Assembly (NCBI GenBank): GCA_013331805.1
Contig: DUFS01000047.1
Location: forward strand, 1-12,026
Direction of reading: 5' to 3'
Origin: Candidatus Micrarchaeota archaeon
GTDB taxonomy: Archaea > Micrarchaeota > Micrarchaeia > Anstonellales > Anstonellaceae
DNA length: 12,026 nucleotides
Shown here: positions 7,813 through 9,148 of the stretch, piece after piece
How the letters are laid out: every line of letters starts with the position of its first letter
Numbering within the stretch: the stretch's first letter is position 1
The notes under the pieces: model-generated
The model's input: the letters and a program-made list of their open reading frames with translations, nothing else
The model's database searches: none
What the model was told of the DNA's origin: nothing
Program-made: the position numbers and the translations under genes

Positions 7813-8016
7813 GTGGTATTCTTGAAACTCATGGCGATTTTTGCAGCCCGCTTCCTGATCCTCGCGCCCATGGCATTCTGCATATTCGTCATCCTTGCAA
7901 GCGAGGAAAAAATGGTGCGGCTGCTTGCGGTAATCAGCCTCATTGTGCTGGAGCAGGCCCGCGAGTTCATGCTGGTTCAAAGCATGAAGGATTTGGGCAA
8001 AAAAGACAGGCACTAG
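7813..8016 (+). CDS. Putative small membrane protein (61-67 aa, two hydrophobic segments)
   Basis: Starts 3 nt after the gap stop (GTG7813, or ATG7831); helical-hairpin hydropathy pattern with a charged tail; no family recognised. Confidence 0.45.
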   Translation: MVFLKLMAIFAARFLILAPMAFCIFVILASEEKMVRLLAVISLIVLEQAREFMLVQSMKDLGKKDRH

Positions 8017-8117
8017 CTGGGCAAAGCTTCGTACGGATTGGAATACAGAGATTCCAATGCAACAAGAAAAAGCCCTGCCCGGCTGTTTTGGGCAAGCATA
8101 ATAAACATTAGCGCAAG

Positions 8118-8277
8118 TAATCTCCGCAACGAGGGAAATGCCTGTGTTCTGGTTGCCTATCTCTTGCCCTGAAGGAATGGTAAAGAGAAGTAGGCCCGCG
8201 CAAAAGCGCGGGCAAGGCGACCAGTTTTCTGTCAGAGACAGAAACAAAAGACGGGCATTTCCTCTGTTGGGATATTG
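8118..8277 (+). ncRNA. Candidate structured non-coding RNA of unknown family (five nested helices, two three-way junctions)
   Basis: Hand-derived pairing: P1 8127-8145/8251-8269 (extends imperfectly to 8118/8277); P2 8149-8158/8215-8224; P3 8160-8168/8179-8188; P4 8194-8201/8206-8213; P5 8226-8233/8237-8244. G-U wobbles occur on the + strand. No convincing ORF covers it. Confidence 0.6.
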
Positions 8278-8282
8278 GCAGA

Positions 8283-8296
8283 GCCGAATATTTAAA
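8283..8296 (+). promoter_or_regulatory. BRE-TATA promoter for the coiled-coil gene (TATA also readable on the minus strand)
   Basis: GCCGAA-TATTTAAA ending 33 nt upstream of ATG8330. Confidence 0.55.
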
Positions 8297-8329
8297 GGTT
8301 CCTATACGGACTAACATAAAAAGCGACAA

Positions 8330-9148
8330 ATGGGTAATAATTTGGACAAACCCGGGAAAGCCAAGGCGTCAGACATTGCCGAAATGCCGGACGGGCTAAA
8401 GGAACTTTTGGACGCGCCAGTGGAGGAAGGAACTCCCCCCGCCATTCTTCTTCCTGCGCAGGAAAACGCGGCGCAGGGGCTCCTTAATCCAGCGCAACAG
8501 CAACCGCAGCTGCCCAAGACCCAAAGGGAAACCGAACTGGATGGGTTCATAGCCGCAAGGCAGGGAATAATTGAGAAACTCAGGGAAAAAAACCCGCAAG
8601 TATCCCAAGCCAGGCGGAAAATCGCTGAAATGGTGCCCGTCATCCGCGGAAGCGGGGCAAGCCACACAATGAAGCTTGCCGCAGAAGCCGAGCACATTGA
8701 GTTTTCAATCGCGACCGAAGCGTATACGCCGAAAAAGGAGAAGGAGCTCATAAAGCGCCTGCGCGACATCCGCCAGGAGCTTTCCAAGCACAAGGAAATC
8801 GACGACGCCAGGAAGGCCGTGGAGGCGGAAAGGCGCAGGCTGCACGAGCTCGTTTCCGAAATCCGGTTCCTGGAGCGCGGGCTTGACGAGGCGAGAAAAA
8901 AGTGCGATGCCGCTTACGCGGAAGTCCTGGCCGAAAGGAAGGCTGCATACGAAGCCAGGCAGAAAAATCGGGAGGAAAGGCGCCAGAAACAATATGATGA
9001 ACTCAAGCACCGCGTGCATGAGCAGAAAAAAAGGGAGTACGCGGATGAGATCAAGCCCTATATGAAGGATTACGACGACACCGTTTCAATGGATGAAATC
9101 GTGCAGATCGAAAAGAAGGGCAAGAAAGACGGAAAGGAAAGCCCCTGA
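8330..9148 (+). CDS. Archaeal coiled-coil protein (COG1340-like)
   Basis: Long E/K/R-rich heptad helices; IEFSIATEAYTPKKEKELIKRL resembles the conserved 'lEf..qT..lt.ekEkelv..i' segment of uncharacterised archaeal coiled-coil proteins (recalled, not searched); P/Q-rich disordered N-terminus; start uncertain. Confidence 0.75.
   Translation: MGNNLDKPGKAKASDIAEMPDGLKELLDAPVEEGTPPAILLPAQENAAQGLLNPAQQQPQLPKTQRETELDGFIAARQGIIEKLREKNPQVSQARRKIAEMVPVIRGSGASHTMKLAAEAEHIEFSIATEAYTPKKEKELIKRLRDIRQELSKHKEIDDARKAVEAERRRLHELVSEIRFLERGLDEARKKCDAAYAEVLAERKAAYEARQKNREERRQKQYDELKHRVHEQKKREYADEIKPYMKDYDDTVSMDEIVQIEKKGKKDGKESP

Follow-up and report, generated by a model that had tools for sequence, protein, structure and literature searches.

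Positions 8266 to 8182 of the window, by which we mean the whole 12,026-nucleotide stretch of Candidatus Micrarchaeota archaeon DNA analyzed here, probably encode on the minus strand a stand-alone small RNA (sRNA), about 85 nt long and conserved through most Micrarchaeota. The putative sRNA would have a BRE/TATA promoter of its own and, at its 3′ end, a GC hairpin that leads into a U-rich tract; between its hairpins it would expose an invariant strand, AAAC-UGGUCGCCUUGCC, with a pyrimidine-rich motif ahead of it. That it is transcribed, where exactly it begins and stops, and how it acts are inferences; its 5′ end was deduced from the geometry of the promoter, and the U-rich tail was used to set its 3′ end.

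A preliminary description of this locus had placed a structured RNA on the plus strand, as a nested fold of five helices (P1 to P5) across 8118-8277. All of the pairings listed for P1 to P5 are present in the DNA, and the minimum free energy (MFE) structure calculated by RNAfold for the plus strand of this interval is the P1-P5 fold itself, at −81.5 kcal/mol; shuffled controls have a mean of −45.2 kcal/mol (sd 4.2), giving a z-score of −8.66, and none of 200 shuffles equals the native value. The G.U pairs at 8143/8253, 8154/8219 and 8166/8181, as well as the TAATAAA box at 8099-8105, are also where they had been reported. The reverse strand of the same interval folds to −69.8 kcal/mol (z = −8.00), 11.7 kcal/mol less stable than the plus strand; since both strands fold far beyond chance, folding energy alone cannot select between them.

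The strand on which selection acts was instead read from the homologues of this element. Species-representative genomes were scanned for the 17-mer, which gave at least 120 matching stretches, and 80 of these were examined. Among the matches listed, those with a hairpin lie in records titled Micrarchaeota, Micrarchaeia, Anstonellales or Burarchaeum; the bacterial matches listed have no hairpin and are about as numerous as expected by chance. The GC hairpin (P4) was scored in 67 distinct loci among the matches listed, one of them a bacterial chance match (L068); on the plus strand it contains 563 Watson-Crick pairs, 21 A.C pairs and no G.T pair, with the A.C pairs, which are G.U pairs when read on the minus strand, spread over several stem positions. 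The second, variable hairpin (P5) gives 220 Watson-Crick pairs, eight A.C pairs and no G.T pair in 34 distinct hairpins that were picked automatically, a few of which are probably spurious. Because the plus strand has A.C and never G.T at these positions, every wobble in the two conserved hairpins (29 of 29) is a G.U pair on the minus strand, which shows that selection acts on that strand and goes against the plus-strand assignment of the preliminary description. Both hairpins also covary. RNAalifold finds eight pairs in the GC hairpin of the 66-sequence minus-strand alignment, five of them with compensatory changes; one covarying pair occurs as AU in 51 sequences, UA in six, CG in four, GC in four and GU in one. 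Of the 66 loci, 45 give the core a lower MFE on the minus strand and 21 give it a lower one on the plus strand (Wilcoxon p = 6e-6), although these statistics overstate the support, as the loci come from related, non-independent genomes.

Conservation is limited to P4, P5 and their linkers, which is at odds with the extent and the five-helix architecture first proposed. The match in 40 relatives is confined to query positions 62-149 (about 8179-8266), and the 5′ half of the fold shows no sequence conservation in the extracted loci. This lineage-specific segment (8118-8181) holds the 5′ arms of P1 (8134-8145) and P2 (8149-8158) and most of P3, and the three plus-strand G.U pairs that had been taken as a sign of selection on RNA all sit in this non-conserved half. 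To examine the pairing of P1 and P2 in relatives, we compared the upstream 106 nt with the two core strands in 21 same-genus loci against shuffled sequences, with a threshold of z ≤ −2. Both helices pass in four of the 21 loci (the window, L010, L012 and L013), a single helix passes in L017 and L019, and neither does in the other 15. The latter include L009, the closest relative, whose core is 99% identical and in which the P1/P2 pairing is absent. The 5′ half would not fit in L023, L027 and L028, where a small open reading frame (ORF) ends only 12-29 nt upstream of P4. Same-sense local alignment of the 5′ half with the minus-strand sRNA scores 27.5, compared with 12.9 (sd 2.2) for shuffles, and on this sequence similarity the segment appears to be a partial, inverted copy of the 5′ part of the sRNA that is now decaying. 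Such a copy would be able to pair with the core on either strand, and the plus-strand five-helix fold would arise from this lineage-specific copy adjoining the sRNA gene.

The small ORF also accounts for the TAATAAA box. In the window it is a conserved ORF of 67 amino acids on the plus strand (7813-8016), convergent with the sRNA and carrying the C-terminal motif ...LEQxR[DE]W/F.... TAATAAA occurs in 18 same-genus loci, and in at least 11 of them it consists of the last codons of this ORF (...AKGNKP stop); the suggestion that it is a promoter is thus not borne out. In the window the ORF ends at 8016 and the box (8099-8105, plus strand) sits in a second copy of its end, 8087-8111 resembling 7992-8016, so that TAATAAA is a relic of the C-terminal codons of the ORF and no supported promoter. 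The 3′ end of the ORF (TTTGGGCAA...CAC TAG) is doubled here, with copies about 95 nt apart of which the second holds TAATAAA; this second copy looks like a duplicated relic. In relatives the P4/P5 core is conserved and covaries, and P1 to P3 are not conserved. The idea of a novel stand-alone non-coding RNA survives to the extent that a conserved structured RNA gene is found at this place; its strand, borders, promoter and five helices do not. A striking fold in a single genome can mislead on both strand and borders.

The block kept in relatives (8182-8266, minus strand) corresponds to the proposed gene and to the match of our covariance model, which in the window covers 8182-8283 of the minus strand with 90 bits. 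In plus-strand order the conserved block consists of an A-rich flank, the GC hairpin, GGCAAGGCGACCAGTTT, the second hairpin and CARAAGACG. The 85-nt minus-strand RNA (8266-8182) is predicted to fold into a three-way junction of −33.0 kcal/mol (z = −4.96; MFE frequency 0.20); the plus strand of 8182-8266 gives −30.0 kcal/mol (z = −3.0; MFE frequency 0.009). A BRE/TATA-like box on the minus strand (GGAACC followed by TTTAAATA, 8289-8302) lies about 23-26 nt upstream of the presumed start, which is thereby placed at 8265-8268. In homologues the AT box reads, in the minus sense, TTTAAATA, TTTATATA or similar, and TTWAWA peaks 60-80 nt upstream of CUGGUCGCC. The seven nucleotides before the AT box have the minus-sense consensus GGAAASS, and AAA is found in them in 32 of 61 loci in the minus reading versus eight of 61 in the plus reading. 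GGAAASS and the AT box together match the archaeal BRE-TATA arrangement; the consensus and the spacing expected of the promoter of a stand-alone archaeal sRNA gene are both found in the homologues. The TATA core is close to a palindrome, and the divergent plus-strand gene may use it as well. A simple scan of the window for bacterial-type promoters and terminators returned no sites, and such a scan is uninformative for archaea.

From its 5′ end, the minus-strand RNA would begin with a pyrimidine-rich motif (8245-8253), which is CGUCUUUUG here and CGUCUUCUG or CUCUACUGU in the alignments of other clades. The variable hairpin (P5, 8226-8244, UUUCUGUC-UCU-GACAGAAA) follows; its stems differ between homologues yet pair (CUGUC/GACAG, CUGCC/GGCAG, CCGC/GCGG and others). 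Next is the invariant single strand AAACUGGUCGCCUUGCC (8211-8227), defined by the invariant columns of the 66-sequence alignment, the final three bases of which start the GC hairpin. This strand, AAAC-UGGUCGCCUUGCC, is 13-17 nt long, lies between the variable hairpin and the GC hairpin, and its core is not palindromic. The GC hairpin (P4, 8194-8213, GCCCGCGC-UUUU-GCGCGGGC) is followed by a pyrimidine- and U-rich 3′ tail, CUACUUCUCUUU (8182-8193), which is the presumed termination region. Over 66 homologues, U makes up 52% of the 12-nt tail, pyrimidines together 75% and G 2.8%, and a T4 run occurs no more than 25 nt after the GC hairpin in 49 of the 66 loci, with T5 or longer in 19; the minus strand also holds internal U4 runs. 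In 15 of 66 loci a closing stem between the tail and upstream purines is better than chance (z ≤ −2); most of these loci belong to a clade in which GGAAGGG pairs with UCUUCC. End-pairing of AGAGGA with UUCUCU in the window's genus was also considered, and is at chance level.

To establish how widely the element occurs, we searched for the 16-mer AACTGGTCGCCTTGCC with at most one mismatch. Of 401 genomes sampled from the phylum, 317 contain it, as do 156 of the 188 that are at least 90% complete, and it occurs in 113 of 155 genera; a reversed control pattern gave seven matches in six genomes. Among the genomes listed the 16-mer nearly always occurs once, and most of the tolerated mismatches, among those listed, affect bases one to three. 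When 151 genomes at least 85% complete were searched with a covariance model derived from the alignment, 132 of them gave a match, including 116 of 134 high-quality ones, with one match per positive genome except in G088; the model picks up families that the strict motif had missed (f2, f6, f9 and f21) and returned no match in the genomes searched from f16 (0/5), f18 (0/2), f20 (0/2), f22, f23 and f24 (0/1 each). The tallies include unpublished genomes (G219 and G061 for the motif, G061 for the covariance model), and dropping them changes nothing material. The window's own 1.19-Mb assembly (G000) has a single copy by BLAST and by the covariance model. These searches show a small RNA family that is phylum-wide, nearly always single-copy, and conserved in most Micrarchaeota.

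Two genomes depart from this pattern. G088 is the only one of the 151 with two matches (G088:C30:4513-4617 and G088:C31:130753-130857), which have similar scores and could reflect duplication or a mixed bin. In G007 (75% complete) BLAST finds no canonical copy; AGGCGAGGCGACCAG is present there in an AT-rich intergenic region (L168, G007:C42:5528-5541) from which the GC hairpin is missing, and this locus may be a degenerate or rearranged copy.

The genes around the element vary. In the window, the coiled-coil protein gene on its right (8330-9148, plus strand) is divergent from the sRNA promoter. Among 59 right-hand neighbors on the plus strand, 34 belong to this coiled-coil family, which is without a Pfam match and adjoins the sRNA divergently throughout the window's order, and 18 are DUF92 membrane proteins, which fill the right-hand place in another clade. 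The left-hand neighbor is GAPDH in 15 loci, where it is convergent, RadA in 11 and RtcA in nine, both co-directional, and others elsewhere. The co-directional gene starts 29-297 nt after the hairpin in 20 loci (11 radA, nine rtcA), and in most of the radA loci an AAAGG-TTTATAT box lies between the element and the start codon. Since the neighbors vary by clade and most radA genes have separate promoters, the sRNA forms a transcription unit by itself and is no leader tied to a particular gene; with at least three families of left-hand and at least two of right-hand neighbors, its independence from the flanking genes is shown.

Some further features of the neighborhood are recorded here. The rtcA gene, encoding RNA 3′-phosphate cyclase, is directly downstream in L048, L052, L073, L079, L085, L093, L096, L100 and L126, and the 11 loci with radA downstream belong to another clade. 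On the plus strand, 8297-8345, past the TATA box (CATACAGAC..ACA.AAAA.CGACAA..GGTAAT), is conserved at the nucleotide level in same-genus loci, and same-genus relatives have no ATG at the start of the window's coiled-coil ORF (8330). The true start of this ORF may be downstream, with 8297-8345 a conserved 5′ UTR.

Comparison with 4227 Rfam models gave no match at the element at the gathering threshold (whole window), only chance-level fragments at E ≤ 10 (8000-8400), and no match at the element in 12 diverse homologous loci at E ≤ 1, which agrees with the earlier suggestion of a novel structured non-coding RNA at this locus. The preliminary description had also seen faint echoes of RNase P and SRP RNA without their diagnostic motifs, and both RNAs are located elsewhere in the genome. 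Archaeal RNase P RNA (RF00373) and type T RNase P RNA have no match at the element at E ≤ 10, and the genome's copy is at C13:3486-3742 (87.7 bits); archaeal SRP RNA (RF01857) has none either, the genome's copy being at C19:22115-22381 (94.6 bits, E = 2e-22, slightly below the Rfam cut-off of 96.5). The 5S rRNA (RF00001) gave no match at the locus and lies at C28:1588-1702 (73.3 bits). We also considered tRNA genes and split halves: ARAGORN finds none in the window, the Rfam tRNA matches are elsewhere, and the hairpin loops range from 3 to 14 nt without a T-loop. C/D boxes (C, RUGAUGA near the 5′ end; D, CUGA near the 3′ end) occur on either strand in none of 66 homologues, which leaves out box C/D sRNAs; for H/ACA sRNAs, ACA is found within 6 nt past the GC hairpin in none of the 66, and the internal loop is one-sided, unlike the two-sided pseudouridylation pocket of that class. 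A MITE or other repeat, named in the preliminary description as a way in which its proposal could fail, was rejected on the single copy in G000.

Several known classes resemble the element in part. Like the universal archaeal RNase P and SRP RNAs, it is near-universal in its phylum, single-copy, and has invariant single strands between helices, but those RNAs have separate loci in this genome and the element scores against neither model. Stand-alone, trans-acting sRNAs are known in archaea, for example from Methanosarcina and Haloferax. They share with the element a BRE/TATA promoter, a length of about 80-90 nt, hairpins around an exposed conserved strand, a U-rich 3′ end and an intergenic position. 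Unlike the element, they are conserved at the level of genus or family and use short seeds, whereas the element is near-universal in its phylum, has 13-17 invariant bases, and has no conserved target among those we searched. Rfam also holds orphan structured RNAs of unknown function, such as the HgcC-type archaeal RNAs and the bacterial OLE and raiA RNAs. These too were found through conservation and covariation and have a housekeeping-like spread, but the element has no sequence or structure match to Rfam models and is far smaller than OLE. Full-text searches on non-coding RNA in Micrarchaeota, DPANN and ARMAN gave no description of such an RNA among the results listed, and it is not mentioned in the matching passages of a study that mapped AMD metatranscriptomes to ARMAN genomes (bioRxiv 10.1101/538918) or of the description of Anstonellales (PMC8561730). 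The element is an undescribed family.

For the invariant strand we sought an RNA partner conserved to a similar degree. Pairing the strand with the 16S, SRP, RNase P and 5S RNAs of this genome gives predicted duplexes of −19.7 to −23.1 kcal/mol, no stronger than roughly the best 1% of random genomic 40-mers. In 23S rRNA, G016 and G004 have a 12-nt complement that G014 lacks, and 23S rRNA was rejected as a partner. The invariant strand contains UGGU and then CGCC, which are complementary to a tRNA end of the form ...GGCG-A-CCA. Binding of NCCA ends is known from the UGGN bulge of the T-box antiterminator and from GGU in L15 of RNase P, and like these RNAs the element has a UGGU-type motif that could face a tRNA 3′ end. 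None of the 19 detected tRNAs fits, the best duplex being −19.6 kcal/mol; tRNA 3′ ends were rejected as partners and the resemblance to NCCA-binding RNAs is probably fortuitous.

The best complement in the genome is a 14-mer, GGCGAGGCGACCAG (G000:C62:13443-13456), with 13 Watson-Crick pairs and one G.U pair. It lies directly 3′ of the ATG, in codons 3-7, of a TrmB-like ORF of 255 amino acids (G000:C62:12698-13462, minus strand). Two close orthologues have complementarity at the same place (G015, −30.6 kcal/mol; G001, −30.2 kcal/mol), and seven more distant TrmB-like orthologues (56-68% identity) give −15.6 to −23.1 kcal/mol, which is background. The exact 14-mer is present in four of 141 genomes of the order, and two of these occurrences are the sRNA gene itself; the site at the TrmB-like start is lineage-restricted.

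These observations bear on what the RNA might do. We propose that the invariant strand serves as a recognition platform for a conserved protein and that the RNA is a component of a ribonucleoprotein (RNP); we regard this as the most likely function, with a probability somewhat short of even. Recognition by a protein or through tertiary contacts is favored because at least 13 bases are invariant, no wobble is tolerated among them, and no conserved complementary RNA was found. Regulation of mRNA by antisense pairing, in which the sRNA would block translation, for example at codons 3-7 of the TrmB-like regulator, is our second choice and on the whole an unlikely one. The complement just after the ATG in G000 and the similar sites in G015 and G001 speak for it, but a site that is lost in the seven more distant orthologues and is found exactly in four of 141 genomes, two of them through the sRNA gene, cannot explain invariance throughout a phylum, and the search of 16S, 23S, 5S, SRP and RNase P RNA and of the tRNAs gave no conserved site.

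Other readings deny that there is a minus-strand sRNA gene at all. A stand-alone plus-strand transcript some 150 nt long (8128-8277), built of five helices and two three-way junctions and started from the TAATAAA box, would fit the greater stability of the plus-strand fold (z = −8.66, 11.7 kcal/mol below the minus strand), the G.U character of the P1-P3 wobbles on that strand, and the return of P1/P2-like pairing in L010, L012 and L013 and of one helix in L017 and L019. It is made very unlikely by the unconserved 5′ half, with both helices in only four of 21 same-genus loci and not in L009, by the ORF that ends 12-29 nt before P4 in three relatives, by a promoter box that is coding in relatives, and by the 29 of 29 conserved-hairpin wobbles that favor the minus strand; three out of three G.U pairs on one strand is a one in eight outcome by chance. 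That the element is instead a cis-acting leader for the minus-strand gene that follows it, similar to a riboswitch or attenuator and with the GC hairpin and U tract as a regulated terminator, seems most improbable. The 20 loci with radA or rtcA 29-297 nt beyond the hairpin would suit a leader, as would the order of invariant, junction-like bases and then a hairpin of terminator type, an arrangement resembling an aptamer with its expression platform. The downstream gene nevertheless varies by clade, radA has a separate AAAGG-TTTATAT box in most of its loci, and in the window's family the gene at this place (GAPDH or the small ORF) is convergent, leaving nothing for a leader to regulate; moreover, we know of no established mechanism of hairpin-dependent attenuation in archaea. 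We give the least credence to an element acting as DNA, either a protein-binding site by the divergent promoter or a site of recombination or replication, with the hairpins as incidental palindromes. A single copy per genome with a 16-bp invariant core adjoining a promoter region would be compatible with this, but a duplex or cruciform is blind to the difference between G.T and A.C, and yet each of the 29 stem positions that depart from Watson-Crick pairing is A.C on one strand; in addition, the stem sequences vary freely with pairing retained, and the invariant core is not palindromic.

A minus-strand sRNA gene of this kind would matter in several respects. Genomes of Micrarchaeota and other DPANN archaea are about 1 Mb in size, and non-coding sequence retained in them is likely to matter. 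With its presence in about 85% of good genomes and more than 100 genera, and with 13-17 invariant bases, the sRNA is conserved to a degree comparable with the core of SRP or RNase P RNA. It is a defined candidate for a new conserved class of RNA in an uncultivated phylum, and the covariance model lets annotators mark an intergenic region that is currently blank. More speculatively, and with less confidence than we place in the gene itself, the RNA might be a fourth near-universal small RNA of Micrarchaeota beside 5S, SRP and RNase P RNA, with the UGGUCGCCUUGCC platform as the core of a lineage-specific RNP, or else a ligand-binding or catalytic RNA, in an essential role possibly tied to unusual RNA processing in these intron-rich, reduced genomes.

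Sequence from RNA libraries was also compared with the locus. Runs X2, X3 and X7 gave no sequence at the element. Library X1 (oligo-dT, soil) contains 30% of the sampled words and yields one 151-nt contig of depth 2 over 8157-8306, with five differences and two indels relative to the window, and thus from a close relative; it carries no information on strand or ends. The contig runs beyond the proposed start of the sRNA and its TATA box and may derive from carried-over DNA or from a longer transcript, and it counts neither for nor against transcription.

The search of the window's assembly for known RNAs showed other features of its RNA genes. The 23S rRNA was not found in the G000 assembly. 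The model match to its 16S rRNA (G000:C10:197-4064, minus strand) falls in two pieces over about 3.9 kb, so the gene has large insertions. In this assembly, which is 91.5% complete, 17 tRNA genes were detected with the Rfam model, 19 with ARAGORN allowing introns and nine with ARAGORN without them. Many of the tRNA matches are 100-180 nt long (for example C37:6925-7103, C37:16793-16949 and C12:6326-6469), which suggests that the tRNA genes of G000 are intron-rich or atypical and are missed by standard finders.
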